A DNA stretch of 32,000 nucleotides from Nostoc punctiforme PCC 73102. GTDB taxonomy: Bacteria > Cyanobacteriota > Cyanobacteriia > Cyanobacteriales > Nostocaceae. The stretch spans positions 322,565 through 354,564 of the forward strand of contig NC_010631.1 in NCBI RefSeq assembly GCF_000020025.1, in the 5' to 3' direction. Position numbers and translations under genes: made by a program. Under the pieces are notes generated by a model that saw only the letters and a list, made by a program, of their open reading frames with translations, did no database searches and was not told the origin of the DNA. Of this stretch, positions 5,477 to 22,699 are shown one piece after another (positions within the stretch are counted from its first letter, which is position 1; every line of letters starts with the position of its first letter).

Positions 5477-5812
5477 ATGAAAATTGAAATCCAAGGAAAA
5501 GATGCGGTAAAAGCTACAGAGGAACTGTTAGCGATTGAGGGAATAGAGGGAAGCTATCAGACAATTGATGAAGTAGAACGGGAAGGAACAGTAGCCACAA
5601 TTGCAACCATAATTGGGATTGTCAGTGGCACATTTGCGATCGCAGAGAGTCTCCACAAGTGGAAGGAAAAATACCAAAAATCGCTATACGACCCAACAGG
5701 TGCAAGGATTGAGAAAGTTTTGATTGTCACACCTGATAATCATCGGCTGCTGCTCAAAGACGCAACAGTAGAGCAAATCCAAGCGATTTTGGAAAAATCT
5801 AAGAAAAAATGA
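5477..5812 (+). CDS. Small single-pass membrane protein (111 aa), translationally coupled to the CHAT-STAND gene
   Basis: A central hydrophobic helix TVATIATIIGIVSGTFAIA is flanked by charged soluble segments. The stop overlaps the downstream start (ATGA at 5809-5812). Confidence 0.7.
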   Translation: MKIEIQGKDAVKATEELLAIEGIEGSYQTIDEVEREGTVATIATIIGIVSGTFAIAESLHKWKEKYQKSLYDPTGARIEKVLIVTPDNHRLLLKDATVEQIQAILEKSKKK

Positions 5813-8706
5813 AAATTCTCCACATCAGCTTGAAAGAGCAAGGCAAGGATTACGTTTCTCTGCGTTATTTTTGGGATAATCCTTCAGATTATAAAGAACA
5901 TAAACTGTCTGTAGCTGAAATCAAGCAGTTGGGTGATAGAGCAGAAACCGACTACTATACCCGCTTACCTGTAGATTATTCTGTTACTGGGCAAGCACTG
6001 TACAATTGGCTAGACAAAAGCGATCGCCTCTTAGCTAATGCCCTCAATCACCCCCATCAACAAGGATTAGTAATAGCGATCGCCACAGACAAGGGACTAG
6101 CTCATCTGCCTTGGGAACTGCTGCATGATGGCAAGTGCTTTTTGGTAGAGAAAACGCCTCCGATTATTCCGGTGCGTTGGATGTCCAATGGTCAACCAAT
6201 AGTTACGGCTGATAATCCTCAAAATCGCCCTCTCAATGTGCTATTTATGGCGACCTCGCCCTTGGGGGTTGAACCGGAATTGGATTATGAAGCAGAGGAA
6301 GGGAAGATTTTGTCGGCAACCAAGCGCACTCCCGTTAATCTGAGAGTAGAAGAAAGTGGCTGTTTAAATGAATTGAGTTATGTGGTTCGGGAATATGAGG
6401 CAGGATATTTTGATGTTTTTCATTTAACAGGCCACGCTACTGTTAATGATAAAACGCCCTGCTTTCTGACTGAAGATGAATATGGCAATCGAGTTGATAG
6501 CAGTACGGACGCGATCGCAAAAGCCATGATGTTTCGTTTACCTGCGTTAGTCTTCCTATCTGGTTGCCGTACAGGTTATTCGTCAGAGGGTGCAGTTCCT
6601 TCGATGGCAGAAAAACTACTCAGCATGGGCGCAACTGCTGTTATTGGTTGGGGTGAGCGAGTCAAAGATACTGATGCGACTGCTGCTGCTGGTCAATTGT
6701 ATTGGGAGTTATCACAAGGAGGAACGCTAACACAAGCGATGGCTTCTACTTATCAAAAATCAATTGAGCAAAAAGTACCAGATTGGCATAAATTACGGCT
6801 GTATGCAGCAAATACTTTACCAGGAACGTTAGTAACTTCATTAAGAACTCCGAGACGCAAGCAACTACCTAAACCGTCTAATGAAGTGGAGTTCAGAGAT
6901 GATGAAAAACGCTTAAGGGTGACAACAAGAGAGAACTTTGTTGGTCGTCGCCGTCAATTACAAAACTGTTTGCGGACTCTAAAAACAGATTTTGACAAAG
7001 TAGGGATCTTAATTCACGGTATGGGAGGATGGGGAAAGAGTAGTATTGCCTCTCGACTATGGGATAGGTTGCCTGAACATGAAAAGATTCTTTGGTGGCA
7101 ACAAATTGATGAATCTTATTTAATTAAAAAACTAAAAGATAAATTAATTAATCCAAAGCAACTAGAATTAATACCTGATCTAGAAAATAGCAAAATCCCA
7201 CTTAAATCTCGATTAATTTACTTGTTTACTCAATTAGCAGAAACAGGAGAAAAATCATTTCTCTTAATTCTGGATGATTTTGAATGGAATCTTGAACCCC
7301 GTGAAGGGCAATATGTTCTTAAAGCTGAAGTAGCCCCGATTCTAGAAGCTTTAGTACAAGCAATCCAATCAACAGGAACTAATAATAGAATTATTATTAC
7401 CTGTCGTTATGATTTTGATTCTGACCTATTAGATTTTTTATATAAACAAGGTCTAGAACCATTTAAAAAAGCTGAGTTAACTAAAAAAGTTAGTCGCTTA
7501 GAAAATTTTAGCTCTGGCAAAATACCTGATAATTTACGGGAACGAGCGTTAAATTTAGCAGATGGTAATCCTCGGTTATTGGAATTCCTCAATGATGAAT
7601 TAAGCAATATAGATGTAGAAACGAGATTAACAAAACTAGAACAAAGTCCTGAATTATGGAAAGCTCAAATTATTTGGGAGGAGCTATATCGGCTAATTGA
7701 TGAGTTACTACAAAAGATTCTTAGCTATTGCTTAGTTTATGATATTCCTGTTCCAATGGTAGTTTTAGAAGCGGCTTGTGATCAGCTTCCTAATTATCAA
7801 CAGCAATTACAAACGGGGCTAAAACTGGGACTGATAGAAGTCAGCCCCGAACCAGACGAATCCAAACGGCTTTATCGAGTTTCACGTATTATTACCCACA
7901 TCATCCCCACTATCCGCCTCCCTGAAGCACCAAAAGTTTATTCTCTCTACCAGAAAGCTCATGAAAGATTACATCAATTGTGGGGGAATAAAGAAAACGA
8001 AAGCCAAGAAAAATGGCAAGAGATTTTTCGATTGAAGTTCGCTAACAAAGAAAATCCTGAACGATTCAGGCAAGGCTTTGATGAGATGTTGGCAGTTCAA
8101 TGTAATTTAGAAGCCGATAAAGCTTTTGAATCCGAATTGAGGAAAGTTGCCGATGACTTGGTAAAGGATGGACTATGTACTCAGTTGGAAAATTATCTTC
8201 AGCAGAAACAATGGCAAAAGGCAGATGAAGAAACTGCTTGGATTTTTTACCAAGTCATGGTTAAAGAAAACTACGAAGATTGGGAGGAACTGCTGAAGGA
8301 TTTCCCCTGTGAAACTCTCCGGGAAATCAATAGGCTCTGGCTTATTAGCAGTAACAATAGATTTGGCATCAGCATCCAAGCGGAAATTTACCAGAGTTTA
8401 GGTAGTCCAAGATATGACGTAGTACAATGGGATGCGTTTGGTGAGCGTATAGGTTGGAAACAATTAGATTGGTTGAGCAATAATGAGTTAATGGAAAAGT
8501 TCGGAAAAAATGGCCAAGGAGTGGAGAATTTGCCATCGCCGCCAGGGGCACTACCCGTTAAAATTTATACTCGTATTATTCTTCCCAAATTACTGCGGGG
8601 GGGTTCGTTTGAGTTATGGAGGGCTAGGGAGTGGGGGGGGTTTAAAGTTAGTGAGAGTGAAGGATTAATATTTCTCTTCTCTCGCGCCAAGACTTGTAGA
8701 GTGTAA
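5809..8706 (+). CDS. CHAT (caspase-like) protease - STAND P-loop NTPase - C-terminal GUN4-like domain protein
   Basis: CHAT dyad: FHLTGHA (His209, nt 6433-6435) and LSGCRTG (Cys253, nt 6565-6567). Walker A GMGGWGKS (nt 7018-7041); Walker B LLILDD (nt 7261-7278); IIITCRY follows. GUN4-like C-terminus (aa ~790-965): QQKQWQKADEETAWIFYQ...FPCETLREINRLWLISSNNRFGISIQAEIYQSLG...GERIGWK...PPGALP...LFSRAKTC. Confidence 0.85.
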   Translation: MKILHISLKEQGKDYVSLRYFWDNPSDYKEHKLSVAEIKQLGDRAETDYYTRLPVDYSVTGQALYNWLDKSDRLLANALNHPHQQGLVIAIATDKGLAHLPWELLHDGKCFLVEKTPPIIPVRWMSNGQPIVTADNPQNRPLNVLFMATSPLGVEPELDYEAEEGKILSATKRTPVNLRVEESGCLNELSYVVREYEAGYFDVFHLTGHATVNDKTPCFLTEDEYGNRVDSSTDAIAKAMMFRLPALVFLSGCRTGYSSEGAVPSMAEKLLSMGATAVIGWGERVKDTDATAAAGQLYWELSQGGTLTQAMASTYQKSIEQKVPDWHKLRLYAANTLPGTLVTSLRTPRRKQLPKPSNEVEFRDDEKRLRVTTRENFVGRRRQLQNCLRTLKTDFDKVGILIHGMGGWGKSSIASRLWDRLPEHEKILWWQQIDESYLIKKLKDKLINPKQLELIPDLENSKIPLKSRLIYLFTQLAETGEKSFLLILDDFEWNLEPREGQYVLKAEVAPILEALVQAIQSTGTNNRIIITCRYDFDSDLLDFLYKQGLEPFKKAELTKKVSRLENFSSGKIPDNLRERALNLADGNPRLLEFLNDELSNIDVETRLTKLEQSPELWKAQIIWEELYRLIDELLQKILSYCLVYDIPVPMVVLEAACDQLPNYQQQLQTGLKLGLIEVSPEPDESKRLYRVSRIITHIIPTIRLPEAPKVYSLYQKAHERLHQLWGNKENESQEKWQEIFRLKFANKENPERFRQGFDEMLAVQCNLEADKAFESELRKVADDLVKDGLCTQLENYLQQKQWQKADEETAWIFYQVMVKENYEDWEELLKDFPCETLREINRLWLISSNNRFGISIQAEIYQSLGSPRYDVVQWDAFGERIGWKQLDWLSNNELMEKFGKNGQGVENLPSPPGALPVKIYTRIILPKLLRGGSFELWRAREWGGFKVSESEGLIFLFSRAKTCRV

Positions 8707-9278: not shown

Positions 9279-12200
9279 TTATTGGGATAGGTTCCAGCGA
9301 GATTTGCAATAGTTTTCAATCTCTTCGTCTGTTGTCAGTTTGCTAGTTAAATTTCCACTCCGCACGAATAAACAGCGTTGATTTTTCTTACCTTTAGTTT
9401 TGACTTCGATGGATACTGGACGTGGGGAAGGCTTTACGATGATGCGACATACATCTCTGCGCTCGACTTCATGGAAGGTGATGTCGATTAATGTTGCTAA
9501 ATCTTTTCCTAGTTGCGGTAGTAATAAATCATTGATGAGAAATAGCTGATATGCATCCCGTTTATTTGGTTTGCTGAAGGTTTGATAATCTAAGTCAAGT
9601 CCGATGATTTCTTTGTCGTCGGTGACTCCTATTAGTAATGTTCCACCTTTTTCGGTATTGAGGAAAGATGCGACTGTTTTGAGAATTACTTGCTCCATTT
9701 CAGGATTTTTTTGGTTTTTATCCACATCCCAACGAGCGGTAGATTTGAATTCTAATGTGGAACTCTCGTCTTTAGTGGTGATGAGTTCCACAATATCTGC
9801 GTCACCTGTTAGGGGTGCAAAGTCCCGATATGCTGTTAATGCATCTTGTTTGACTTGTTCGGGAACGATGGGGAATGTGGTGAGGATGTATGCAAATTCT
9901 GCTTCAGTTAAACCGTAGAGGTGAGCTATAATTCCGTCGAGTTCTGCGCGGAGTTTAGCTCTTTCGCTTGCGTCGGTGACTCCGTTGGTATGGGAACCGA
10001 GTCCAACTTCTTGTGCTAGTTCGTCAAATTCTGGGGTGGTGCAGATAAGTTTGGCTGCGCGTTGTACAATTTCGTCGAAGTTGCGATCACTTTCCGTTAG
10101 ACGTGGAACTGGTAACTGATAAATGTAAAACATATTTATGTTTGCAGATACCTGTTGACGTAATGCAAAATCTATACAAAAACTATTCAATGTAGCGCAT
10201 ATAAATAAAGTAGATTTATTATCCCCGCTTGGGGATGCAATATTAAGAGAATTTCCAGTAAAAACATTTGAGGGTAAAACTGTTCCAATTAAAGTACGAG
10301 CATCTGTACTTCTGCCTATAGCACGGTAAGAAAATCTATAACATTGATAGTTTAATATTTGACCTGTATCGCATTCATTCTTTTTCAATAAAGCTTTTCT
10401 GCCTTCTTCTTCATTCAGCCAATACCTAGATTTACCAAATTGATGGGTAAACTGATGAATCATCTTTCCTTCATAGAGAGGTAGCATAGAATGGACATAT
10501 GTTTTATTGAAAAGAGAAGCATCATCAGTCATATTAAATTCACGATGCAATTCTAAATTCCACTTATTATCTATCTTTTCACCTAGTGAAGGAAACTTCA
10601 GCATTTTCTCAGCAATACAAACATCAACTTCGTTTTTTAATTCCATTAGCGAAAGAGAATTAGGTGATATTTTTCGTACCATATCAATGGTAATTAGCAA
10701 ACTATCATTATTTGGGAACCTTAGAAGTTCTTGCACATCATGACGCATAAAAATAGCTGGAAATTCTGTTGTTTCTGCACCCTTTGTAAAAGTAAGTACA
10801 ACAAATTTAGAACGACTATCAACTTCTTCAAAAATCATTTTCCGGTTTTCAAAGCAGAATAAACCTGTAATATTTGTTTGATTAAACAACATCTCTCGTA
10901 GTTTTTTAGCACCTAAGTCAGTATAAATACCACTAGGGATTACAATTCCACACTCACCATTTTTACGTAAAAGGTTAAAGCACTGTTCTAAAAAAAGTTT
11001 GTAAAGATTTACATCTTTACCGTGGCGTTTACCGTTAATTATAGGAACCTGATTTTTATACTGTTCAGCAAATCTAAAATACTCCCTTTGATGGTTGTAA
11101 TCACTTTGATAGTGTAACCATTCTTTCTGAATATTTGGATCTGTTAGTAAACGTTTTAGCTCAATCTCAAAATCCTTAATGTCCATCTTTTTCTTAGTCA
11201 CAGCATCACTATATTCTGAGCAAAATTCTTTAGAATTAGGTTGAAAACTTTCCCAAGGTGGATTAGTTATAATCGCATCAAAACCACCCCTTCCTAAAAC
11301 CTTATCAAAATGATAACCCCAGTGAAAAGGCTTTAATGCAGCAATATCATCAACATTTAAAACCCGTTTATTTGGTTTACCAGCTAACTGAACTTCTTCA
11401 TATTTAATCCCCAAGCGCTCGCTAAACTCTTCCAAAAGCAAAACATTTAGTTTTTCTTTTGAGTTATTATTGAGATCATCAATAGATGCACGCAGTAATA
11501 GAAGTTTTTTATTTTGATGTGTTTCCTTATCTAGCTTATCAAATTCCTTTTTTTCAGGGATAAAAGCATATTTTTTATACAATTCAATTGATTTATTTTT
11601 CTCTTCTAAAATTGACTGATATGTATAATAAGAACTAGATTGAAATAAACTTAATTGTAAATCGGGATTTTCTTGTTTATATCCCCGTGCTTTAGCTTTA
11701 GCTGTGAGTTTAACTTGATCGAATACATTTGCATCGACCGTTATCAATCCAATTAGCGAATTACCAGCCATAATATTAAAATCAATATTAGGTAATGGTT
11801 CTAATTGATTTACATTATGAGCAGAAGATACCAAAGCTAGAAATAAGCGAAGTTTAGCAATTTCTGTCGCTTCCTCCATGATGTCAACACCATAAAGATT
11901 ATCAGTAACAATCCGTTTTTTTAAGTAGTAAGATATAGACTGATGTTTATTTCGTATATCTTGAAGTTGTTGCTTTAAACTTGCATCTCCTATTACGTCA
12001 ATCATCCCAATTACTGCACCATAAACTAGGATAAGTGTTTTCATTACAGCAACAAGAAAAGCACCCGAACCGCAAGCAGGGTCAAGAATTGATAATTTTG
12101 GCAGAATATCATTAATTAATAAACGGCAGATATTTGCATCTAGTTTAAATATCAGTTGGTTATAATCTTCAAAAGGTTTATATTTATTAGATAAAGAATC

Positions 12201-13304
12201 ATTAACGCGGTCTAAAATAAGTTTATGAATCGTCCTATCACAAAGATATTCGGTGATTTGCGGACGAGTATAATAAGCACCAAACACTTTTTGATTAATA
12301 TACTTTTCAAAAATGTACCCTAAAACATCGGGCGATATTTCGTCATCTTTCCCTTCTGGCGTATCATCTAAGTTCCAAGAATATTTGGCAAATAATTCTA
12401 AAATTTTTTCAAATGCTATATCAGAAATTGAAATATTATTTTCTTGTTCAATGCGATGTTGAAGGAATAATCCACCATTGAGGTATTTAATCACTCCGAC
12501 CAACTTTTTCACTGATGGGTCACGGTCTTCTTCTGGTGTAGCAAAACTGTCAAAAAATAAAACTTTCAGAAAACTACTATAAAAAAGATTATCACCTTTA
12601 TCTTTACTTTGTTTGAGCCGATTTTGTAAATAATTTAAATCTCCATTATCCAGGAAACTCTTACGCTGGAGAAAATAAACGAACATCATTCTATTGAAAA
12701 TTACCGATGCATACCAACGTTTATCAACATCATTGTTGATTCCTTTTATATGCTGTAAAAACTGCTTATGTTCCTCTTGAAATTCTTTATAAAATTTCTT
12801 CGTTACAGGTTCTACATCAAACGCATCTTGAAGACGGCGTGCAATTTCTACAACCGAAAGATTATCATCTTCAAGTTCAGTAATATCAATAACTAAAGAA
12901 CCGAGCTTACTTAAAAATAAATCTCCCGGTTGTCCCTTGACATACAAAGGCTCACGGATGTAACTTTTATTTTCTTCACGCTTCACCCAATACCAGAGAC
13001 TTCGAGTACGCTGACCATCAATAAATATCAACAGATTTTCAGCAATTAAATTGGTAACTTCTTTGTGAATTGCAGCCCGACTTTTTGCATCAGGAATAGT
13101 ACCATCTGCTGCTGTAACTTCAAAAATAGCTACACCAGAACTCTCAGCTATTCGCTGGTATTGGTAAAACTCAGTCTCCTCTTCAAGTTGCAAGGTTACA
13201 GCTTTTTTCTGCGAAGAATCTGACCAACCCAATTCTTGAATGAACAAGTCCTGAAATTGAAATTTATGTAATAATTCGCGTGTTCGTTGGAAATTTAGCG
13301 TCAT
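9279..13304 (-). CDS. Large gamma-class N6-adenine DNA methyltransferase (type IIG/PglX-like architecture) with C-terminal AlbA_2/Schlafen-like domain
   Basis: AYYTRPQITEYL. Motif I ILDPACGSGAFLV (aa 406-418). YGVDIMEEATEIAKLRLFL, NIMAGNSLIG. Motif IV DAIITNPPWESF (aa 676-687). C-terminal helix motif IIAHLYGLTEAEFAYIL. The last ~163 aa (nt ~9282-9770) read STLEFKSTARWD...LKTVASFLNTEKGGTLLIGVTDDKEIIGL...VCRIIVKPSPRPVSI, which is the AlbA_2 pattern. Confidence 0.85.
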   Translation of the reverse strand: MTLNFQRTRELLHKFQFQDLFIQELGWSDSSQKKAVTLQLEEETEFYQYQRIAESSGVAIFEVTAADGTIPDAKSRAAIHKEVTNLIAENLLIFIDGQRTRSLWYWVKREENKSYIREPLYVKGQPGDLFLSKLGSLVIDITELEDDNLSVVEIARRLQDAFDVEPVTKKFYKEFQEEHKQFLQHIKGINNDVDKRWYASVIFNRMMFVYFLQRKSFLDNGDLNYLQNRLKQSKDKGDNLFYSSFLKVLFFDSFATPEEDRDPSVKKLVGVIKYLNGGLFLQHRIEQENNISISDIAFEKILELFAKYSWNLDDTPEGKDDEISPDVLGYIFEKYINQKVFGAYYTRPQITEYLCDRTIHKLILDRVNDSLSNKYKPFEDYNQLIFKLDANICRLLINDILPKLSILDPACGSGAFLVAVMKTLILVYGAVIGMIDVIGDASLKQQLQDIRNKHQSISYYLKKRIVTDNLYGVDIMEEATEIAKLRLFLALVSSAHNVNQLEPLPNIDFNIMAGNSLIGLITVDANVFDQVKLTAKAKARGYKQENPDLQLSLFQSSSYYTYQSILEEKNKSIELYKKYAFIPEKKEFDKLDKETHQNKKLLLLRASIDDLNNNSKEKLNVLLLEEFSERLGIKYEEVQLAGKPNKRVLNVDDIAALKPFHWGYHFDKVLGRGGFDAIITNPPWESFQPNSKEFCSEYSDAVTKKKMDIKDFEIELKRLLTDPNIQKEWLHYQSDYNHQREYFRFAEQYKNQVPIINGKRHGKDVNLYKLFLEQCFNLLRKNGECGIVIPSGIYTDLGAKKLREMLFNQTNITGLFCFENRKMIFEEVDSRSKFVVLTFTKGAETTEFPAIFMRHDVQELLRFPNNDSLLITIDMVRKISPNSLSLMELKNEVDVCIAEKMLKFPSLGEKIDNKWNLELHREFNMTDDASLFNKTYVHSMLPLYEGKMIHQFTHQFGKSRYWLNEEEGRKALLKKNECDTGQILNYQCYRFSYRAIGRSTDARTLIGTVLPSNVFTGNSLNIASPSGDNKSTLFICATLNSFCIDFALRQQVSANINMFYIYQLPVPRLTESDRNFDEIVQRAAKLICTTPEFDELAQEVGLGSHTNGVTDASERAKLRAELDGIIAHLYGLTEAEFAYILTTFPIVPEQVKQDALTAYRDFAPLTGDADIVELITTKDESSTLEFKSTARWDVDKNQKNPEMEQVILKTVASFLNTEKGGTLLIGVTDDKEIIGLDLDYQTFSKPNKRDAYQLFLINDLLLPQLGKDLATLIDITFHEVERRDVCRIIVKPSPRPVSIEVKTKGKKNQRCLFVRSGNLTSKLTTDEEIENYCKSRWNLSQ

Positions 13305-13910
13305 GATATACTACCCTTGCAGATAAAAATAGAATTCTGTGTAGTAAAAAACGAGCATAAAAAATATGCCCATAGACCAAAATCTTGGAGCCATAATCCT
13401 TAATAAATAAGGACTTATTTATAAAACCGTTATAATACTGCTACTGTGATAACCTTTTTAGTTACAGAAAGGCTCAGTGTTGATACTGGTGAATGGCAAT
13501 TTTGCAAGTGGCTATATACTGCCAGTAATAGTATAGTGTAAGTATAAAATCTAGCTGGATAAAATACTTTTCGACTAAATCTCAGCCTAGAAACCCAATA
13601 ATAGCTTAAAAGCTTATCTAGTAAGACTTTAGATAACTATAGGTAATTAGTGAAGAAAAGCTAAAAATAGCCTACGTATCACTGAAATAAAATATAAAAT
13701 TAATACGCAAAAAAATGTATAGTTTTATCAACTAGCAGAAACGCGAAAACGTAGAATATGTACTTGCTTAGGGTTATATTGGAGAATGCGATCAGGCTAC
13801 AAATTCTTCTGACGGTGGAATGGGGAATGCGCTTGTACAATTTTTAAGTTTGCCCGTTTTCAAGCATATATTTTCTTGTTCCATTGGTGTGAGTTTTTAA
13901 ATATCCAATA

Positions 13911-16900
13911 TTATTTCTCAAACAATCCTAAAGAACAAATGATTTGAGGTTCCCGTTTCTCAATTTCTTCGCTGACAATACACAAGCGATCATCCATCCG
14001 CAAAGCAACTACTAATTCTGCTAATTGCTGACTACTAATACCACTTCTTAATTGCCGATTTAAAGTATCGAGCGCAGACTGCCTTAATGGGTAACGATAA
14101 ATCTCATCAATCGCTTTTAATAGTTCCTCATTTACAAATAAAGTACCCTTCATCTCCTGTGCATAACTTTTCAATCGTTCGTAACTACGGAATCTCGCAC
14201 CCGATGGTCTACCCAATTGACCACCCATATTTTTTTCTTCCTCAGCCAGTAATTCCGCACCTTTTTTAACTAAATTGTGATGCTGTTTATCTTTAGCTAT
14301 TGCTAGTGTATATTCATCACAAGATGCCATTTTTAACACAGCTATTTGAGATTGGGTAACACTATTGCCATTGCGATCAACATAAATTAAAGAATCATTC
14401 CCTTCAGTGGTTTTCATATACATTAATACTCCCTCTGGTTGCACTATTCGAGGTATATGTTCACGAGTAGAATAAACCACATTGGGCATCTCTTCAATGG
14501 TTTTTTTAAGCCCAGGATTATTATCAGTTGCTTTTTTCCAAATTTGAAATGCTTCCGATGTTAAGTCAACTTCTGCATCTTCATCTCCATCTAAAATACC
14601 CGATTTTTCATTATATAAATCCCAAATTACTTGTGCATCATCATCCTCAAAAAATGCCTCATCAGTTCCCACAACCTCGGCATTTTCTTGTAATCTTTGC
14701 TTGAGTCTTCCCCGCAAATTAATAATCCGTTCCACACCTTCAGCAGGAAGAAAAGAATAACAGAGAATTTCTTGAGCATTTTGTCCAATTCGATCAACCC
14801 GTCCAGCCCTTTGAATTAATCGAATAATTGCCCAAGGTAAATCCCAATTGACGATAATTGCACAATCTTGTAAATTATGACCTTCACTTAAAATATCTGT
14901 GGCGATTAATATACGTAATTCATCTGTTGACAATACCCTATGTCGCTGATTATTACTCACAGGACTAAATTTTCCCGTCAGTTCCGTAGGATATTGTGAT
15001 TGCCCCGTTACTCCTGCTACTTTTGTAATATTTTTTGCCTGTAAGTTATCTGTTATGTAGCGTACCGAATCTGCAAATTGTGTAAAAATTAAAACCTTTT
15101 CATTAGGATGAGTTTTTGTTAGTAGATTTATTAGGGCTATCAATTTTTCATCTGCTTGAGAATTCCATTTACCAATATTTTGTAATATATTAATTAGTGC
15201 TTTTGCATCGGCTAATAAATCTTTTTTTAGTTTTTTAATATCAAATAATGACGAACGCAACCACTTAAAACGACGTTGATATCGGGTAGTATATTCCTGA
15301 TAAATTGACTCTGCTCGTTGTCTAAAAACTTTTTCTGCTGACCCCATCCCTGCTGGGGGGGTGAAAATTTCTTCTCCGACTTTTCCTCCCTTCTCTGCTT
15401 GTGGAGAATGGGGTAAGGAGGTGAGGTCATCTTCTTCTATTTCTATATCAAATAAACTTGCTATAACAGAATCAGCATCCTCATCATTATTCCTCGTATC
15501 TAATAATTCTGCATCTTGAGTACCAATAGGGATATCAAGCTCGTTTTCTAAAGCATATAAATAAATAAAATTCCGTAAAATGTGACGTTCAATTGATTGA
15601 ATAAAAGCAGAACCACTACTTTCTAAGCGTTTAAATAAATTAGTGCGAGAAAAACCCATCAACCTTCGTCCCCCGCGAAATAAGCCACTAATTTGGCGCT
15701 GTTCTGCATCTGTTGGTGGCTGTTTAGATTTTGCAAGTACATAATTACCCAATCCATAACGGGGTAAATTTAATTGATTAATTACTTGAATTACTGCTTC
15801 TGAATAAAGACTAGAATAGGAGTCATTAGAACTATCTAAAGTGAATTTAATAGTGCGTGGTAAACGATCAGGAAAATAAGAACGTCTACCATCGGTAAAC
15901 TCTAAGTATTTACGTGTCACTTTTTGTTTATCCTGACTCAGGGAAGAAGAATTTGGGTCTGATTTGGCATAATTATCTTTAATAAACGAACGAGTCCGCC
16001 GCACCATATAGCGTTTCATCAATTCTCGCCAATCGTCGGAATGTTCGCTTTTTTCAAAAGCAGCAAGAGACTTAACAGAACATTGATACTTTCTAATAAA
16101 TTGCAATTCGCCTAACGAACCGCCACCCAATTCATTGATTAAAGTTTCTGGTCTAAAACCTAAATCTTGGTCTTCAGGAACAAATAATCTTAATTGAGAA
16201 GAAAGGTCAAGATAAGTTTTATTATATGGTGTTGCCGAAAGTAAAATACATTTGCTTTCATTGGCTGTAATATATTCAGCGATTGCCCGATATCTTTTAC
16301 CTTCTCGATTGCGTAAATTATGACTTTCATCTATTAATACAACCCGATAACGACGTAATTCTGGTAATAAATTTTGGACTTTACTAATGGGCATCACCTT
16401 AGCATAAAGCCGATAAGTATCCACATATTCTTGCCACATCGAAGTTAAGTTTTTTGGACAAATAATTAAGGTTTCCAAAAAACAATCTTCTTGTAATATT
16501 TTTGCTAAAGCTGTTCCAACTAATGTTTTACCAAGCCCCACAACATCGCCGACAATTACCCCACCACGGCGAGTTACATGACGCGCTGCTAGCTGTACGG
16601 CGGCTTTTTGGAAATCAAACAAATTATTAAATTCACGGGGAATTCGGAATTCGGAAATTCCGGCGATTGCTTCATGGGATAAATGATAAGCAATCTTCAA
16701 GTAAATATGATACGGGGGAATTAATTCTTCCCTTGCCCAACTATTATCAATTATTTCTGCAAGCTCTTTAGAAATATCGATACAGCCGTAATCTTTCCAA
16801 CGGTCTTCAAACCACTTTTGCAGTTTATTCGTTGCATCATGGTCTAAAATATCAACATTTAATTCCCCTTGTTTTCTCAAACCCGCCAAAGTCAAATTAC

Positions 16901-17381
16901 TACTACCTAAAAATCCAACTATCGGACTATTGGGGTCGTTACGATGAACCAGGTATAACTTAGCATGGAGGGGATGCGCTAAAAATAATTTAATAACTAA
17001 TTTCTTTGTTTTTAATTGACGGCTTAAACGACGTAACCCCATTTCATGATCATCTGTTGGCGCACCGATGGTAAGCTGTTGGCGAAACTCCGCCGCTATC
17101 TTTTTTTTGAGACGAATAATAGTGCTATTATCAAGCCTGCCCTCCCCAGTACCCAACGTAAATGCTGTATGCACTTCATCGCTGGGTAAACCCTGCATCC
17201 CTACCAACAACCGACAACAAGAAGTTTCTCCACCCACATACTGTTCGATTAAATCATCAAGCTTGCGCCAACCTCTGAGGTTAAAGTAACCTACGCAAAA
17301 GTCAGCCCGGTAAGATACTTTAAGGGTATCCCGCAAAATTGGTAGCAGTTGCAAGTCGATGTTGTCAAATATGCGTGGCAT
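13911..17381 (-). CDS. PLD-family (single HKD) nuclease domain fused to an SNF2-type SF2 helicase/translocase
   Basis: N-terminal ADFCVGYFNLRGW and HKD motif HAKLYLVHRNDPNSPIVGFLGSSNLT (aa 139-164). Helicase motif I GDVVGLGKTLVG; motif II VVLIDESHNLRN; motif III ILLSATPYNK; motif V ATDILSEGHNLQD; motif VI QRAGRVDRIGQ. Confidence 0.85.
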   Translation of the reverse strand: MPRIFDNIDLQLLPILRDTLKVSYRADFCVGYFNLRGWRKLDDLIEQYVGGETSCCRLLVGMQGLPSDEVHTAFTLGTGEGRLDNSTIIRLKKKIAAEFRQQLTIGAPTDDHEMGLRRLSRQLKTKKLVIKLFLAHPLHAKLYLVHRNDPNSPIVGFLGSSNLTLAGLRKQGELNVDILDHDATNKLQKWFEDRWKDYGCIDISKELAEIIDNSWAREELIPPYHIYLKIAYHLSHEAIAGISEFRIPREFNNLFDFQKAAVQLAARHVTRRGGVIVGDVVGLGKTLVGTALAKILQEDCFLETLIICPKNLTSMWQEYVDTYRLYAKVMPISKVQNLLPELRRYRVVLIDESHNLRNREGKRYRAIAEYITANESKCILLSATPYNKTYLDLSSQLRLFVPEDQDLGFRPETLINELGGGSLGELQFIRKYQCSVKSLAAFEKSEHSDDWRELMKRYMVRRTRSFIKDNYAKSDPNSSSLSQDKQKVTRKYLEFTDGRRSYFPDRLPRTIKFTLDSSNDSYSSLYSEAVIQVINQLNLPRYGLGNYVLAKSKQPPTDAEQRQISGLFRGGRRLMGFSRTNLFKRLESSGSAFIQSIERHILRNFIYLYALENELDIPIGTQDAELLDTRNNDEDADSVIASLFDIEIEEDDLTSLPHSPQAEKGGKVGEEIFTPPAGMGSAEKVFRQRAESIYQEYTTRYQRRFKWLRSSLFDIKKLKKDLLADAKALINILQNIGKWNSQADEKLIALINLLTKTHPNEKVLIFTQFADSVRYITDNLQAKNITKVAGVTGQSQYPTELTGKFSPVSNNQRHRVLSTDELRILIATDILSEGHNLQDCAIIVNWDLPWAIIRLIQRAGRVDRIGQNAQEILCYSFLPAEGVERIINLRGRLKQRLQENAEVVGTDEAFFEDDDAQVIWDLYNEKSGILDGDEDAEVDLTSEAFQIWKKATDNNPGLKKTIEEMPNVVYSTREHIPRIVQPEGVLMYMKTTEGNDSLIYVDRNGNSVTQSQIAVLKMASCDEYTLAIAKDKQHHNLVKKGAELLAEEEKNMGGQLGRPSGARFRSYERLKSYAQEMKGTLFVNEELLKAIDEIYRYPLRQSALDTLNRQLRSGISSQQLAELVVALRMDDRLCIVSEEIEKREPQIICSLGLFEK

Positions 17382-17481
17382 GATTTCATACTCTGTTGGA
17401 AATTTTTAGCGGCTTAATGGTAGTGTTTCATGAGTATAAGCTCTGGCAATTGTTTGTACCAATAGTTGAAATTCGCATTTG

Positions 17482-18681
17482 CTACTCATTCCACTTCACC
17501 AACGCCCCATCAACAATAGCAATCCCCCACTGCGGAAACCTCGCCAGCAACTTCTTGATCACAATCTGCAAAGCCGGATCATCACTCCAGCACTCTTGCA
17601 AATACTCAAACCCCGGATTCTGCCCCGAATTCGCTGCAACCTTGAGTTTCTGCATCCGCTCCGGTCGCGCATTTGCCCTTGCAACAATCGCCTCATGCGA
17701 CCACTTTTCAGCATTTGGCACGGGGGCGGCGGAACTTTCACCCTCATCAACTGTTTTGACTTCTCCACCTGAAACTGAATTTTCAACTAACAACAAAGTG
17801 GGATTACCCTGTTCTACAAGCTCTGGTGTTTGATTAACGATCGCTTCCTTGGAAGAAAATTCATTTTGAGCGACGGGCGCGGCGGAACCAGTACCTTCAT
17901 CACAGTCCCTCGGCTCAACGCCACAATCCTGGTTTTCAGGCAACAGCGAAGTGGGATTACTTTGTGCAGCATCCACAAGCGCTAGCGATGTACAGTCATT
18001 CGCCGTAGGCGAGTCTTTCTCATTCTCTGACACGCTTTGAACAAACTGAGGCGACGCGCCCCCCAAGGGCGCATGAGCCGTCTCTTCAACTTGCAAAATC
18101 TCATTTAGCGTGTTAGAGACACAGCTAACGAACTCTTTTGAAGAGTTCGTTAGCTGTTCCTGAGCAGTTTGTGAGGTTTCCTGAAACCCTTGCTCTGACT
18201 GATTTTGACCTGAAATAGATGCTTTATACGAAGCACCTATCTCTTCACAGCCAGCATCTATCTCTGAAATCTCAGCATTTGGTTCTTGTTTTTCAGCATC
18301 TGGTTTTGGTGACGCAGAATTAGCTTTTTCCCAAAATTCCTTCATCCGACTGCCATGCAAATTTTTCACCATCCAGCTAGCCGTTTCTCGGCCGTCTTGA
18401 ATTGACTTGTCGGGTTTGAAAATGAATAGCCCACTGTCAGCTAGAATTTTCTTCGCAGAGATAAAAGTACTGTATCCTAAAGCTGAGGTCAAAGACATCC
18501 ACCGAGAACCATAAGGATCAGCCGTCCAGCATTCCTGCCACAATTGTGTAACTGATGGTTTTTGCTGCGATGCCCACAGCATATCTTGTATGGGAATAAT
18601 CACATGAAGTTTTTTATACGGGGATTCCTTCTTGCTAGCAGCAGCCTTTTTGGGTTTGGGACGAGTAATAGTTGCAGTCAT
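17482..18681 (-). CDS. Hypothetical protein (399 aa), full-length paralog of 2688-3740
   Basis: Same N-terminal domain and AGGAGA RBS as the left copy. It has two ~34-aa internal repeats (ENQDCGVEPRDCDEGTGSAAPVAQNEFSSKEAIV / ENSVSGGEVKTVDEGESSAAPVPNAEKWSHEAIV). A ~60-aa C-terminal segment is absent from the left copy. Confidence 0.75.
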   Translation of the reverse strand: MTATITRPKPKKAAASKKESPYKKLHVIIPIQDMLWASQQKPSVTQLWQECWTADPYGSRWMSLTSALGYSTFISAKKILADSGLFIFKPDKSIQDGRETASWMVKNLHGSRMKEFWEKANSASPKPDAEKQEPNAEISEIDAGCEEIGASYKASISGQNQSEQGFQETSQTAQEQLTNSSKEFVSCVSNTLNEILQVEETAHAPLGGASPQFVQSVSENEKDSPTANDCTSLALVDAAQSNPTSLLPENQDCGVEPRDCDEGTGSAAPVAQNEFSSKEAIVNQTPELVEQGNPTLLLVENSVSGGEVKTVDEGESSAAPVPNAEKWSHEAIVARANARPERMQKLKVAANSGQNPGFEYLQECWSDDPALQIVIKKLLARFPQWGIAIVDGALVKWNE

Positions 18682-19905
18682 TGTACAATCTCCTGTTTAT
18701 GTTGACGCACGGAATTTTCCCTACAACGATTGCAGGGCTTGGTATTTGTATTTAGTTGTCTAAAAAGTTACTAATTCAGTGGAAGCCTATTGAGGTTGCC
18801 AGAATCGCAACTCATCTCGGAAATACCTATCAGTTTTTTTTGATTGCTCCTTCCAGCAATCCCATGCAACCACTACTTCCTCGCCTAAATCCTCTACAAC
18901 CTCGCCCCTCTCGACATACAAAGTACGATACGGGTCAGCGTGGGCAACGATAGAACCAACGCCAATGGTGTCTGGTTGAGAAGATGCGTTCTGGAGTGCG
19001 GTAATAAAATCAGTCTCTTGGGTGGTCAATTCCGCCCAATAGTCCTGTTTAATCACTTCATACTCTTGGGCAACATTCCAAAAGTCCTCCCAGCTACACC
19101 CAGACTGTGCAAGTACCCGCCGAATGTCACTAACCGCCTGGGGTAGTAGTTGTAATTGTTCAGCGCGGTAAGCGATCGCGGATTGTGTAGGTTCACTCCC
19201 CAAGATTATCGCCGCAGCTTCGAGCGCTTGAGTATTGTTCATGGCACTGGCGAGATTCTTCAACGCCATACCCATCAACCGTAAGCATTCGGTGGCATTC
19301 TCTTTGGGTGGTTCTTGGGCCAGCGATCGCAAATCAATGGTTTTCTCTAACGCCTGTTTTACCTGCTTGTTCAACGCTTTGGTCGCTTGCTGGGTCATCG
19401 TATTTCCCCACTGCTGAACCGGATGCTGTTGTACGGCGCGTTCTAGTTCCTGAATGCGCTGCTGGAGTTGTTGATTCTCAGTCTCAAGCTTTCTCAACCC
19501 CTCCATTTCATCCAGCCGTTGCTGTAACTGGATGTTTTGCTCTTTCTGCTGCTTGTACAGTTGCTGCAAGGATTGGATTTGTTCTTGTACCTGGGCTTCG
19601 GCTTTTGCCCCTGCTTCTGCTTGTAGCCCAATCCTCAATTCGTTGGAAAGTCGCTCTAACTCTTGCTGATGCTGTTTTTTAATTTGGGCAATTGCTTCAG
19701 TATACTCTGGTGGATAATTCTGCTCTCTGGGGAATGGAACGCTTGGGGCATCCAAATCAGCATTGTTGATCAACAACCTCTCACCATCAGCAAAGGTGAC
19801 AATCTGCTGCCAATGGTTTGGTGCGTCTGCTTCAATCACTCCTGATTCACCATAACGAGGATGTTCTGGTAATGAGACAGTCACAGAATTACACAATTGC
19901 GTTTT
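17482..19905. repeat. Right (intact) copy of the ~2.3-kb segmental duplication
   Basis: See the partner at 2688-4975. This copy carries the full-length genes. Confidence 0.85.
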
Positions 19906-20361
19906 GGGGTTTTCGCTTTTTGTGGAGTGTTTAGTTGTTGGTGCGACTTGCTGCACTGCTTTGGCGAAATCGGCGGCGGTAGGGAAAGGTTTTTCTTTTG
20001 CTGCGATCGCAACAGCTTCGTGTAACTTGTCGGGAGTTTTGACCAGTCGGAGTAAGGATCGTGTCTGGGATGGTTTAGTAATCTTCTCTCTTAGTTCTTC
20101 TGGTAGGGTATCAACTACTTTCTTCGCAGATAGCAAATCTCTGACCCGGCGATATCCCCCATGCTTGGTTAGCTCTTTTTCACAATAATCTTCAAAACTG
20201 ACATAACCAGCATCAGAGTAATAGCCGTTATCGCGCATCAGACGCAGTTCTTCTATTGCTTGCCACTCGAACCGGTCAATGGCGGTGAGGGTTTCCTGAA
20301 TGCTGGTGTTGACAACACTGTAATCGAGTGCTGATGTTTGTTCTCTTTCTAGTGTCAGCAT
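18787..20361 (-). CDS. Hypothetical coiled-coil protein (524 aa) with an N-terminal putative DNA-binding region and a small C-terminal beta domain
   Basis: The N-terminal ~150 aa (YVSFEDYCEKELTKHGGYRRVRDLLSAKKVVDTLPEELREKITKPSQTRSLLRL) is vaguely ParB/KorB-HTH-like. The middle is a Q/E-rich coiled coil (LQQLYKQQKEQNIQLQQRLDEMEGLRKLETENQQLQQRIQELE). The C-terminus is conserved: GSIVAHADPYRTLYVERGEVVEDLGEE. Confidence 0.75.
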   Translation of the reverse strand: MLTLEREQTSALDYSVVNTSIQETLTAIDRFEWQAIEELRLMRDNGYYSDAGYVSFEDYCEKELTKHGGYRRVRDLLSAKKVVDTLPEELREKITKPSQTRSLLRLVKTPDKLHEAVAIAAKEKPFPTAADFAKAVQQVAPTTKHSTKSENPKTQLCNSVTVSLPEHPRYGESGVIEADAPNHWQQIVTFADGERLLINNADLDAPSVPFPREQNYPPEYTEAIAQIKKQHQQELERLSNELRIGLQAEAGAKAEAQVQEQIQSLQQLYKQQKEQNIQLQQRLDEMEGLRKLETENQQLQQRIQELERAVQQHPVQQWGNTMTQQATKALNKQVKQALEKTIDLRSLAQEPPKENATECLRLMGMALKNLASAMNNTQALEAAAIILGSEPTQSAIAYRAEQLQLLPQAVSDIRRVLAQSGCSWEDFWNVAQEYEVIKQDYWAELTTQETDFITALQNASSQPDTIGVGSIVAHADPYRTLYVERGEVVEDLGEEVVVAWDCWKEQSKKTDRYFRDELRFWQPQ

Positions 20362-20674
20362 ATCTCTTGCTCACTATGGTAAATGCTTGAAAGTTGGGGT
20401 GTTGCAGTTTAACCAAAGTGAACTGAGGAGATACTGAAGGGTGTTTGCACAAAAATGTGTCAGCATTATAATTAGCTCACTTTGTCGTTAACGGATTGAG
20501 CAGGCGATCGCTAACTTTGGACGGTGGGCGATCGCTTCTAGTTGTTGTGCTATTTATCTAAAGATAATTTCAGTAGTTACTCCGATTTTTAGTTACAAAA
20601 ATACAATTACTACACTTGTATACTAATGAGGCAATAACTTTTGCTTTATGCTAACCGCATCATTAGTAGAAAAT

Positions 20675-20929
20675 TTATTCCATCTCTTGCACTAAAGCAG
20701 CTTTAACCTCGGCATCAAAATTTACACCAAGGGCATCAGAAAGCTTACGCAAAGTTTCACGCGGTAAAGACTTTGCATCTTCTGTTTCTATACGATAGAG
20801 GTTGCCAACACTCATACCAGCTTGAGCTGCTACCCAAGTTGGGGATAGTCCCTTGGACTCTCTAATCTCTCTAATCCGAGTGCCTAGACCAGGCAAATCA
20901 ACCGACAGAGTAACTTGCATTAAGTTCAT
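20675..20929 (-). CDS. XRE-family (Cro/C1-type HTH) transcriptional regulator
   Basis: IREIRESKGLSPTWVAAQAGMSVGNLYRIETEDAKSLPRETLRKLSDALGV is a classic HTH_3 pattern. There is a GGAGAA RBS 8 nt upstream of the ATG. Confidence 0.85.
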   Translation of the reverse strand: MNLMQVTLSVDLPGLGTRIREIRESKGLSPTWVAAQAGMSVGNLYRIETEDAKSLPRETLRKLSDALGVNFDAEVKAALVQEME

Positions 20930-20986
20930 AACTTCACTTCTCCATTAATGTAAGCAAATCATAGCGCTTCTTTCCTCCGTTTTCAA

Positions 20987-21049
20987 GCTTTACTTATTCA
21001 GCTTTACTTATTCAGTGAGACTTTACAAGTATAGCTTAATAAGCTATAC
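20987..21049. promoter_or_regulatory. Candidate operator cluster upstream of the XRE gene
   Basis: Two exact tandem 14-mers gctttacttattca sit at 20987-21000 and 21001-21014. A perfect 21-bp palindrome gtatagcttaataagctatac sits at 21029-21049. The cluster lies 58-120 nt upstream of the XRE start. Confidence 0.5.
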
Positions 21050-21473
21050 TGTAAGAATAGGGCAAAGGAAAGCAAACTGCCTGCACCCGGACGCAATAAA
21101 GGGTTTGCAGTATCTGAACTTTGACAGCAATCCAGAGTCACAGCTTGAGGAGCAACCGAGGCACTGGCAACACCAGAGAAGGCGAGGGGTACACAGCCGG
21201 AAATGGATATTGCACTGAATAAGAAATCACCAGCAGGACGACAGACGGCATTTGAAGCGTTTGAAGTCGTACACGTCGCCTGATACGCTGTATCTCCTGT
21301 TTTGGTATCACTCAAATGCCACTGGCTTTGAGTCACGAATATATGGCTACGCCAAATCTTTTTGAGAGCGTTGTCCTAAACCACAACGTTGTTTGCACAC
21401 ATAACAAAGACGACCGCTACTGTCTGCAAAACTCAGCGATCGCCTTTTATCCAACTGAATGGAGATCAATATT

Positions 21474-22040
21474 ATGCCTTATACAACACATACACAGCAA
21501 GCAATTCCTAGTTCTTCTCGTGACGAGCAAGCCCTAGCTCAAGCGGAACTCGACAGCCACCTCGAATCTCAAGCCCAAGCTATAGCTCCAACCCAAGATC
21601 CTCTCACCAGCAGAGATCGCCGCATCATTGGCGAGATTATCGAAGTTGAACCCGAATCAGTCCGCACTATCTGGATTGAAGGCGGAATCACCGTATGGGT
21701 GCAGCTAGTCAGTGGCGGACGGCTTCCCTTCGATCGCAACTGGTTCGCCAAAAGAGTTGCAGAGGTGAAAACGACCCTCCCAGAAACACCCCTGGAGCGC
21801 AACGAGCGATTAAGTGATGAATTGGAGGAAGCTTGCGCTGTTTTTGGTCTGTACCACGGTGAGATAGATTGGCTCAGTTTCAGCACCAAACTCTACAGAG
21901 ACGGGCATTTGGTCGGCTTCGTCGGGTGTAATCACCAAGGTTGGTACGCACGACCAAGACAATACGGAGTAAATCGGGTTGCTGGCAATGCAAAAGATGT
22001 GATTGCATTGCTGGGAGTCCGAACGGCAGTAGCGGCGTAA
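21474..22040 (+). CDS. Hypothetical protein (start at 21474 preferred over 21459)
   Basis: GGAGA at 21461-21465 lies 8 nt before the ATG at 21474 (MPYTTHTQQ...). The composition is protein-like and the overlapping minus-strand ORFs are poorer. I recognise no motif. Confidence 0.6.
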   Translation: MPYTTHTQQAIPSSSRDEQALAQAELDSHLESQAQAIAPTQDPLTSRDRRIIGEIIEVEPESVRTIWIEGGITVWVQLVSGGRLPFDRNWFAKRVAEVKTTLPETPLERNERLSDELEEACAVFGLYHGEIDWLSFSTKLYRDGHLVGFVGCNHQGWYARPRQYGVNRVAGNAKDVIALLGVRTAVAA

Positions 22041-22049
22041 GTGGCTGTT

Positions 22050-22425: not shown

Positions 22426-22699
22426 CTACAAACTCGTATACGTGAACGGAGCTTGCCCCAGAATTTATCGGGTGTACAAGGGTAATTCAATGATTGGAGT
22501 GATATTTCAATACATCACCCACTGGTCTAACGGAGTCGATTCTCTTCGATACGCCGAGTCGGTTGATGCAGCAGTTGGACTAGACCAATTTATGAAGGTG
22601 GCAAGGGTATCAAAAGCGACTATGGAACAACTAGCCAGGGAAGAGGAATTACTCGATAAAGAATTTGATGTGCTAAGTGAAAGATTGGTTGCAGCGTAA
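22322..22699 (+). CDS. Hypothetical protein (ATG at 22322 preferred over the TTG at 22253)
   Basis: MITTLSLQHTELEESLDKILLPPTDPNAEVQEIPPYKLVYVNG... The 5' end lies inside the second unit of the tandem duplication. Confidence 0.55.
   Translation: MITTLSLQHTELEESLDKILLPPTDPNAEVQEIPPYKLVYVNGACPRIYRVYKGNSMIGVIFQYITHWSNGVDSLRYAESVDAAVGLDQFMKVARVSKATMEQLAREEELLDKEFDVLSERLVAA

Follow-up and report, generated by a model that had tools for sequence, protein, structure and literature searches.

The question raised by the locus described here is whether two neighbouring genes on a plasmid of Nostoc punctiforme PCC 73102, one encoding a helicase protein with a phospholipase D (PLD)-type nuclease domain and the other a giant adenine methyltransferase, are two separate enzymes or the two halves of one restriction system. 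The analysis concerned a stretch of 32,000 nucleotides (the window), which is part of the 354,564-bp replicon. Both open reading frames (ORFs), for proteins of 1156 and 1341 residues, were found exactly as an earlier note, made from the sequence alone, had read them, that is as two co-directional genes on the minus strand (coordinates and protein accessions in table 1). The two genes are a strictly linked module that is widespread across many bacterial phyla. From their sequences, they probably form a two-subunit, ATP-dependent defence system of the restriction-modification kind, which would follow the logic of type III or split type ISP enzymes with different parts.

The linkage was read from both sides. 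A profile of the methylase N-terminus, applied to one genome per species, gave at least 580 confirmed matches, and the best loci were used to read the gene order. The best 80 of these matches span Cyanobacteria, Acidobacteria, Planctomycetes, Verrucomicrobia, Bacteroidota, Chloroflexi, Armatimonadota, Nitrospira, Geobacter, Fibrobacteres, Leptospiraceae and Methylococcales, and a PLD-SNF2 gene adjoins the methylase gene in 75/75 assessable loci. Where at least 4 kb of upstream sequence was available (65 loci), an intact, full-length PLD-SNF2 gene lies immediately upstream on the same strand in 58 and is frameshifted or fragmentary in seven, being absent in none; in nine shorter loci the helicase gene runs to the contig edge, and in one more it lies downstream of the methylase. 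The scan anchored on the helicase covered metagenome contigs and gave at least 582 matches, with 74 contigs assessable. The methylase is present in 71 of the 74, directly downstream on the same strand in 67 and nearby in another arrangement in four, and an intergenic distance of 30 bp or less was found in 37 of the 67. The pairwise identities of the two proteins correlate in a mirror-tree comparison (Pearson 0.84), as expected of two genes that move together by co-transfer, a measure by which physical interaction and mere linkage are not separable. Clustering of the ORFs that flank 69 loci revealed no universal third gene. Co-occurrence across genomes was one of the checks that the earlier note had proposed, and the two genes turn out to be near-obligate neighbours in both scans. 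Three PLD-SNF2 genes (L136, L139 and L164) have no methylase gene within 2-8 kb downstream; a gene for an MqsA-like antitoxin and an integrase gene are found near the first, and a Uma2 gene near the second.

A second line of evidence, and the one that tells most, comes from enzymes of the MmeI family. On a Gordonia terrae plasmid, a distant homologue of the PLD-SNF2 protein (35% identity) is followed by an MmeI-family methylase with the MmeI_hel, MmeI_Mtase, MmeI_TRD and MmeI_C domains, which lacks MmeI_N and has at its start, instead, an N-terminal domain of the type found in the window protein (the N-domain in what follows). When a plasmid collection was searched with the Gordonia methylase, the family appeared in two forms. 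The enzymes of Pseudarthrobacter, Rhodococcus and Rathayibacter align from residue 1, are without MmeI_N and match the N-domain profile (E 5e-15 to 2e-8), and all four enzymes of this form, that of Gordonia included, are preceded by a PLD-SNF2 gene with a 4-bp overlap. For the enzymes encoded by Corynebacterium striatum pTP10 and Microbacterium pYJNG the alignment begins only at residue ~140-160; both contain MmeI_N, D...ExK motif included, and no helicase gene adjoins them. Thus two methylase lineages lack a built-in endonuclease in just those cases that have the N-domain and the PLD-SNF2 protein, which supports the idea that cleavage has moved to the helicase protein, and on the same pattern the N-domain would be the coupling element. 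With the linkage in both directions, this exchange strongly favours the arrangement put forward in the earlier note, namely nuclease and translocase on one chain, modification and target recognition on the other, and the two acting as one unit. On haloarchaeal plasmids, PLD-SNF2 helicases (26-30% identity) are found beside Eco57I-type methylases of 1200-1375 residues (L094, Halorubrum lacusprofundi pHLAC01; L095, Halobaculum); these pairs were not merged into the family because the N-domain profile finds none there at the sensitivity used.

The N-domain occupies the position at which type IIG and IIL enzymes have their endonuclease domain. The N-terminal ~170 residues of the methylase matched no Pfam family at E≤10, except for one match at chance level, and neither the sequence nor its conservation revealed a D...(D/E)xK arrangement or another nuclease motif. 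E62 is the sole conserved acidic residue in the equivalent beta-strand, and it belongs to an E-V-T sequence whose third position varies. E89 is invariant, and K108 and D96 are nearly so; yet D96 is replaced in about 19% of orthologues, and the actinobacterial N-domains retain neither E62 nor K108. The AlphaFold models are confident (pLDDT, the predicted value of the local distance difference test, 84-85, with 84.5 and a predicted template modelling score, pTM, of 0.81 for the domain alone) and contain two beta-beta-beta(-beta)-alpha repeats. Foldseek searches of the PDB with both models gave nothing significant and no nuclease. Pfam, conservation and Foldseek are in this way at one with the earlier reading that this region has no nuclease motif. 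The identity of the N-domain as a degenerate MmeI_N was considered and rejected (hhalign probability 0.2%, with an MmeI_N profile of two sequences only). The N-domain family comprises 1135 representatives of clusters at 50% identity in a library of 1.8 billion proteins, with 50-60% identity across phyla. Wherever the start of the protein is available, the domain lies practically always at the N-terminus, and its full-length carriers have about 920-1500 residues. In one protein (P0383, 1050 residues) the profile matches four stretches, the best at 491-594 and not N-terminal, which may reflect a repeated or rearranged architecture.

These properties bear on the possibility that the locus contains two independent systems, that is a self-sufficient type IIG enzyme with a cryptic N-terminal nuclease and a stand-alone PLD-helicase like Hna or SauUSI. 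The type IIG labels that PADLOC ('REase_MTase_IIG') and UniRef attach to the methylase family would fit such a view, as would the conserved E89, K108 and D96, the existence of single-protein PLD-helicase defence enzymes (SauUSI, PMC7913695), and the few helicases and N-domain methylases that are found without a visible partner. Such independence is, however, very unlikely given the near-complete linkage in both scans, with reading frames that often overlap or nearly abut, the replacement of D96 in some orthologues, the absence of E62 and K108 from the actinobacterial N-domains, the lack of any Pfam, Foldseek or profile-profile link between the N-domain and nucleases, and the MmeI-like enzymes that keep a true nuclease domain and go without a helicase.

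The helicase protein would be the nuclease-motor subunit. The PLDc_2 and RE_NgoFVII matches fall at residues 115-195, the latter with 28.7 bits against a Pfam cut-off of 23.8, and in the Pfam architecture the PLD domain is fused directly to the SNF2 motor; the match to ResIII is partial (9.9e-7). H139 belongs to the only HxK in the whole protein (HAKLYLV...GSSNLT), so that the single HKD motif ahead of the SNF2 motifs, described in the earlier note, is indeed what the protein contains. In 66 orthologues from many phyla, H139, K141, GSSN159-162, the Walker A sequence GLGK285, D351ESH and motif VI are 100% conserved. A sequence search of the PDB with the helicase gave generic superfamily 2 (SF2) matches only. 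Two relatives deserve mention. The orthologue of Calothrix sp. 336/3 (P0019, 1484 residues, 84% identity) is recorded with a fused N-terminal C5 cytosine methylase domain (PF00145), which could be real or an annotation run-through. On an Enterococcus faecium plasmid (L087) a distant helicase-related homologue (28.5% identity) is found in an operon with genes for a helix-turn-helix regulator, a DUF4391 protein, a type III-like methylase and a DEAD/DEAH helicase.

By its sequence, the 1341-residue protein is a gamma-class N6-adenine methyltransferase of the Eco57I/type IIG build. Matches to Eco57I, MmeI_Mtase and N6_Mtase of Pfam span residues 394-709, and the DPACGSGAF and NPPW motifs, together with a helical spacer that includes DUF7814, agree with the type IIG/PglX-like organization previously read from the sequence. 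The REBASE-derived 'REase_MTase_IIG' models of PADLOC match residues 1-368 (1.6e-115), relatives are named 'type IIG restriction enzyme/methyltransferase' in UniRef, and the Alw26I/Eco31I/Esp3I methylase model is matched, over its C-terminal two thirds, by the region at residues ~711-1160 (2.9e-38, below the cut-off). A PDB sequence search with the methylase gave no match. Silent copies of the recognition domain and inverted repeats, which are reported to serve phase variation in a Bacteroides relative (PMC9881135), were looked for in the window and not found. Both catalytic motif sets of the pair are under strong purifying selection.

The following scheme is proposed. The methylase subunit would recognize an asymmetric site and methylate adenine at N6, thus marking host DNA by hemi-methylation. 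The N-domain would have taken the place of the endonuclease domain of the free-standing type IIG/IIL enzymes and would couple the methylase to its partner, so that at unmodified sites the methylase would engage the PLD-SNF2 subunit through it. The helicase subunit would supply the SNF2-type translocase on double-stranded DNA and, in its PLD domain, a nuclease with a single HKD motif. Such a motif contributes half an active site in the PLD nucleases that have been solved; cleavage would therefore need two helicase subunits to meet. ATP-driven translocation would let two single-HKD domains combine into a complete active site, and the DNA would be cut, in analogy with the logic of type III/ISP enzymes and with CglI/NgoAVII, which join PLD nucleases to a motor. 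A collision of complexes started at unmodified sites would also explain how self-tolerance is achieved with an asymmetric site that is only hemi-methylated, and a C-terminal Schlafen domain would act as a second line. The sequences themselves show the domain content, the conserved motifs, the gene linkage, the exchange of domains and the separate occurrence of the two accessory additions described below; physical coupling, dependence on methylation, cleavage upon collision and ribonuclease (RNase) activity are features that we infer from them.

A broader proposal, which we put forward only tentatively and regard as less probable than the basic scheme, is that the N-domain is an adaptor not described before that turns single-chain type IIG/IIL enzymes into two-subunit, motor-driven ones. 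The endonuclease would have been replaced in at least two methylase lineages, Eco57I-like and MmeI-like, with a PLD-SNF2 protein recruited each time, and the resulting enzymes would form a distinct and widespread ATP-dependent class, many members of which would carry a Schlafen RNase as a fail-safe.

The Schlafen domain is part of the methylase itself. The protein ends with a Schlafen/AlbA_2 domain in which the Ex4ExK sequence, an instance of the Ex4(E/D)xK catalytic motif of Schlafen nucleases (bioRxiv 10.1101/2025.07.24.666596) and the hallmark of pSlfn proteins, is intact. The term 'nuclease-less', given to the methylase in the earlier note, thus holds for an N-terminal DNA endonuclease and overlooks this C-terminal domain. 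Among 57 full-length orthologous methylases, 22 (about 40%) end with the domain; in Gordonia, AlbA_2 forms a separate third gene. Nine others, all without a Schlafen domain, are followed by genes for an ABC-ATPase and a DUF4276/TOPRIM protein that match HEC-01A/B of PADLOC. The two additions do not co-occur in this sample (HEC-01 in 0/22 methylases with the Schlafen domain and in 9/35 without it, Fisher p=0.009), and 26 of the 57 have neither. By its definition HEC-01 is a candidate found embedded in Hma systems, BREX-related systems are described as having OLD-ABC/TOPRIM modules and Schlafen RNases for suicidal backup effectors (PMC12839542), and bacterial Schlafen fusions defend by tRNA cleavage. 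The Schlafen domain and HEC-01 may, on this pattern, be alternative backup effectors of the abortive-infection type. For instance, in Anabaena cylindrica pANACY.05 (L085, 7503-9301) the HEC-01 pair lies directly downstream of a Schlafen-less methylase, and it is likewise found at L021, L022, L026, L031, L032, L035, L055, L072, L081-L083 and L090.

It could also be thought that the Schlafen domain is the main effector, with the methylase-helicase complex sensing foreign DNA or anti-restriction proteins and releasing the RNase, and with DNA cleavage being secondary. The intact and conserved Ex4ExK motif, the tRNA-cutting defence and the suicidal backup role just mentioned, and the lack of co-occurrence with HEC-01 are all in line with such a role. 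However, a domain found in 22/57 orthologues, with neither addition in 26/57, cannot be the core mechanism of the family, and the conserved residues are the general signature of the AlbA_2 family and as such no proof of activity, which makes an RNase-centred mechanism decidedly improbable.

Several observations weigh against a two-subunit restriction system of the type proposed. The helicase is ~80% identical across many genera of Nostocales, which is unusually conservative for a restriction system. Similarly, the presumed recognition region, with column identities of 0.39-0.77, shows much the same conservation as the remaining methylase and is not hypervariable, unlike the specificity domains of most type I, IIG and III enzymes. 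The proposed coupling role of the N-domain rests on co-occurrence, and its fold matches nothing solved. Three of the 74 helicase genes are without a methylase nearby, and for two distant N-domain methylases the 8 kb upstream contain no helicase. In the window the two genes are separated by 606 bp, and scans for promoters and terminators were uninformative, with none clearly resolved. No methylome or restriction phenotype of N. punctiforme was found in the literature searched. Finally, PLD proteins are dispensable in DISARM (bioRxiv 10.1101/2021.12.28.474362), so that the nuclease need not be the effector.

The last point leads to an exclusion mechanism in the style of BREX or DISARM, in which the SNF2 motor and the methylase would keep unmodified DNA from being replicated but leave it uncut, with an accessory or regulatory PLD domain. 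Pairs of an SNF2 helicase and a PglX-like methylase do recur in non-classical systems, as DrmD-DrmMI of class 1 DISARM, ArmA-ArmB of ARMADA II and BrxHII-PglXI of BREX type 3 (PMC12839542); in DISARM, DrmC (PLD) is not needed for defence and deletion of the methylase is not toxic, and a conserved recognition region fits a system outside the classical diversification of specificity. Nevertheless, the full conservation of the HKD residues in the 66 orthologues across phyla argues for an active nuclease, the exchange of the nuclease domain in the MmeI-like enzymes is best understood as a transfer of cleavage to the PLD domain, and all other core genes of BREX and DISARM are absent from the window and from the 69 loci, so that exclusion without cleavage is unlikely.

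High conservation in Nostocales and a recognition region that is not hypervariable could, on the other hand, suggest a role outside defence, namely epigenetic regulation or DNA repair or remodelling by an SNF2 motor with its dedicated methylase, all the more as SNF2 proteins such as RapA have housekeeping roles. Such a function is most improbable in view of the patchy distribution across phyla at 50-60% identity, the location on plasmids, the G+C content of the gene pair (0.32-0.37, against 0.42-0.48 in the flanks), the neighbours that differ between loci, the toxin-antitoxin, Uma2, DUF1016 and HEC-01 genes inserted in or beside the pair, and the conserved nuclease motif. The low G+C content, the plasmid location and the varying neighbours were counted as signals of mobility. 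Restriction by the pair, with cleavage by the PLD domain, remains the preferred explanation.

Table 1. Features of the gene pair in the 32,000-nucleotide window (window coordinates; residue numbers refer to the encoded protein)
Feature	Position	Strand	Basis
PLD(HKD)-SNF2 helicase-nuclease gene, 1156 aa	13911..17381	-	ORF; Pfam domains; exact match to ACC85125.1 (N. punctiforme PCC 73102)
N-terminal PLD-family nuclease domain, residues ~1-200	16782..17381	-	PLDc_2 1.7e-8 and RE_NgoFVII 9.7e-7, both above Pfam cut-offs
Single HKD core H139-x-K141...G159SSN162	16890-16967	-	sole HxK in the protein; conservation of 100% over 66 orthologues
SNF2/SF2 helicase N-lobe, residues ~243-470	15972..16655	-	SNF2-rel_dom and ResIII matches; motifs 100% conserved
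Walker A GLGKT	16524-16538	-	within helicase N-lobe
DESH motif	16320-16331	-	within helicase N-lobe
Helicase C-lobe, residues 746-866	14784..15146	-	Helicase_C 1.7e-16
Motif VI QRAGRVDR	14790-14813	-	key residues invariant
Conserved helicase C-terminal region, residues ~900-1156	13914..14684	-	no Pfam match; 53-74% column identity in 66 orthologues
Methyltransferase/target-recognition subunit gene, 1341 aa	9279..13304	-	ORF; Pfam, PADLOC and NCBIfam matches; exact match to ACC85124.1 (N. punctiforme PCC 73102)
N-terminal domain, proposed coupling domain, residues 1-150	12855..13304	-	no Pfam family; AlphaFold model; profile distribution
Helical spacer, residues ~165-335, includes DUF7814	12300..12812	-	DUF7814 match (246-333); helices in AlphaFold model
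Gamma-class N6-adenine methyltransferase core, residues ~340-710	11175..12287	-	Eco57I 2.8e-23, MmeI_Mtase, N6_Mtase
Motif X FGAYYT	within methylase core 11175..12287	-	
Motif I DPACGSGAF, from residue 408	12057-12083	-	key residues invariant in 57 orthologues
Motif IV NPPW, residue 681	11253-11264	-	key residues invariant in 57 orthologues
Presumed target-recognition/C-terminal region, residues ~711-1160	9825..11174	-	Alw26I/Eco31I/Esp3I methylase model; REBASE-derived type IIG models
C-terminal Schlafen/AlbA_2 domain, residues 1180-1322	9339..9767	-	SLFN_AlbA_2 8.5e-18
Ex4ExK motif E1180-SSTL-E1185-F-K1187	9744-9767	-	at least 95% conserved in the 22 orthologues carrying the domain
AT-rich non-coding intergenic gap, 606 bp	13305..13910	.	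sequence reading; no Rfam match
Weak sigma-70-like promoter match upstream of helicase gene	17433..17462	-	consensus scan, 9/12 matches, not above shuffled expectation

The gap between the two genes of the window contains no credible ORF and gave no match in Rfam. At the corresponding position, relatives have either ~0-20 bp, as in an operon, or inserted toxin-antitoxin, Uma2 or DUF1016 genes. The intergenic distance is larger in Nostocales, often with inserts that comprise BrnT/BrnA-like and other toxin-antitoxin pairs, Uma2 and DUF1016. The space is an insertion hotspot in L002, L003, L006, L007, L091 and other loci (BrnT/CopG, HipA/Couple_hipA, Uma2, DUF1016), and the inserted genes recall the 'embedded' defence genes described for Hma.

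By Pfam and PADLOC, the neighbours of the pair in the window are unrelated to it. At 5477-8706 on the plus strand, a 965-residue protein with a CHAT protease domain, an AAA_16/NB-ARC NTPase and GUN4 (Pfam) is encoded, preceded by a 111-residue ORF with a 4-bp overlap. Its GUN4 region matches PD-T4-6 of PADLOC (7e-21), and the gene may represent a STAND/caspase-like conflict system adjoining the pair; in a relative, Nostoc sp. C110, AAA_35 and GUN4 genes are found at the same position beside the methylase. A 798-residue protein with nine stretches of RTX calcium-binding repeats (HemolysinCabind 5e-70) is encoded at 29-2425 (+). Just upstream of the helicase gene, at 17482-20361 (-), are two genes for proteins of 399 residues (of low complexity) and 524 residues, both without a Pfam family, the latter with only a weak LmuB-like match in PADLOC (1.6e-4); Nostoc sp. 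C110 has genes for 456 and 577 residues at this position, and other relatives are without them. Small ORFs densely fill 20600-32000 on both strands, and the two tested (21459-22040 and 25315-26082) belong to no Pfam family; in Nostoc sp. C110, too, the pair is flanked by comparable small genes that lack annotation.

In current annotation the methylase is a 'type IIG enzyme', a 'DNA methyltransferase' or an 'ATP-binding protein' and the helicase a 'helicase-related protein', and with such piecemeal labels the unit is invisible as a system. If the proposed mechanism is correct, restriction enzymes change class by swapping one small domain, and a PLD-based, SNF2-driven member joins the ATP-dependent restriction enzymes. 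The unit would also be relevant to the genetic tractability of Nostoc and of many environmental bacteria. The alternative Schlafen or ABC-ATPase/TOPRIM additions would also offer a compact model of restriction backed by an abortive-infection effector.

The pairing as such is not new. As the earlier note had anticipated, combinations of PLD-SNF2 proteins and methylases are present in comparative papers (PMC9881135; PMC10853773; PMC12839542), and the present one received a passing mention in 2023; we found neither a name for it nor an analysis or experiment. What is new are the adaptor-like N-domain, the exchange of the nuclease domain in two methylase lineages and the fused Schlafen domain.

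The closest described systems are Hma and the type-2 BREX-related systems (PMC12839542; PMC8565338), which also combine an N-terminal HKD endoDNase-Swi2/Snf2 helicase with an N6-adenine methylase and host embedded or adjacent accessory effectors, namely OLD-ABC/TOPRIM (HEC-01) and Schlafen RNases; in the type-2 BREX-related systems the HKD-Snf2 protein is the proposed effector (PMC12839542). However, the defining DUF499 ATPase (HmaC) and stand-alone DUF3780 protein of these systems are absent here, both from the window and from the flanks of the 69 loci, where the pair is accompanied by no small gene that is conserved. The HmaA model of PADLOC matches only the helicase C-lobe (5.7e-18), and the present methylase, giant and type IIG-like, brings a recognition region of its own and a novel N-domain.

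With class 1 DISARM (DrmD-DrmMI-DrmA-DrmB-DrmC) the pair shares the order of an SNF2 helicase gene and a large N6-adenine methylase gene, and a PLD component. The designation 'minimal DISARM-like' has nonetheless to be abandoned: the DrmA/DrmB (DUF1998) core is absent, the PLD domain is fused to the helicase rather than separate as in DrmC, NCBIfam DISARM_DrmD gives 116 bits where the cut-off is 610, and the PADLOC models of DrmD and DrmMI, far below their cut-offs, cover no more than the generic C-lobe of the helicase and the core of the methylase. Similarly, PglZ and BrxC of BREX are missing and the NCBIfam PglX models give 24-47 bits against cut-offs of 400-900. The absence of DrmA/DrmB, PglZ and BrxC, which had been pointed out for the window, extends to the clustered flanks of the 69 orthologous loci.

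The same architecture of HKD followed by helicase is found in PbeA and other HKD+SF2 fusions (PMC10853773), which have been read as restriction subunits of type I/III-like systems, and in C3a139 'HKD+Snf2', known from a gene survey around type III CRISPR loci (PMC6546367), which is the best PADLOC match of the helicase (4.3e-48 over residues 4-907). The partners in Pbe are a CxC ABC ATPase, a DndE-like protein and a small protein, and the scores of these fusions speak for a remote kinship only. Likewise, the model of Hna, 'phospholipase D-like anti-phage protein' (NF042964), gives 163 bits against an equivalog cut-off of 1100. A helicase-methylase or HKD-helicase theme is common to ARMADA II, BREX type 3 and Pbe. 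CglI and NgoAVII (PMC4267653, PMC4267654) resemble the pair in joining an NgoFVII-family PLD nuclease, an SF2 ATPase motor and a methylase, and the nucleases of this family do work with ATP-driven motors there (PMC4267653).

The type IIG/IIL enzymes Eco57I and MmeI share with the methylase a helical spacer, a gamma-class core and a recognition region in one chain, and the actinobacterial cousins carry the full MmeI_hel-Mtase-TRD-C set; the N-terminal PD-(D/E)XK domain of type IIG/IIL enzymes is missing here, a domain that shows no recognizable relation to it stands in its place, and the helicase-nuclease partner is obligatory. Type III (EcoP15I) and type ISP (LlaGI/LlaBIII) enzymes join a helicase-nuclease part to a methylase-recognition part that acts on an asymmetric site, and in the pair, too, ATP-driven long-range communication would be expected. 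In type III enzymes, cleavage takes ATP and two unmodified sites in inverse orientation. The pair resembles the former in its division of labour between two subunits and the latter in its content of nuclease, motor, methylase and recognition region. It differs from type ISP in that this content is split over two chains and two genes, 606 bp apart in the window, from type III in that the methylase is of the Eco57I/MmeI-like gamma class and not of the Mod family, and from both in that the nuclease is N-terminal and of the PLD/HKD type rather than PD-(D/E)XK, the motor is SNF2-like and the helicase gene comes first. The pair therefore falls outside DISARM, BREX, Hma, type IIG and type ISP, and it combines a helicase-nuclease of the HKD-Snf2 kind with a methylase of the Eco57I/MmeI kind.

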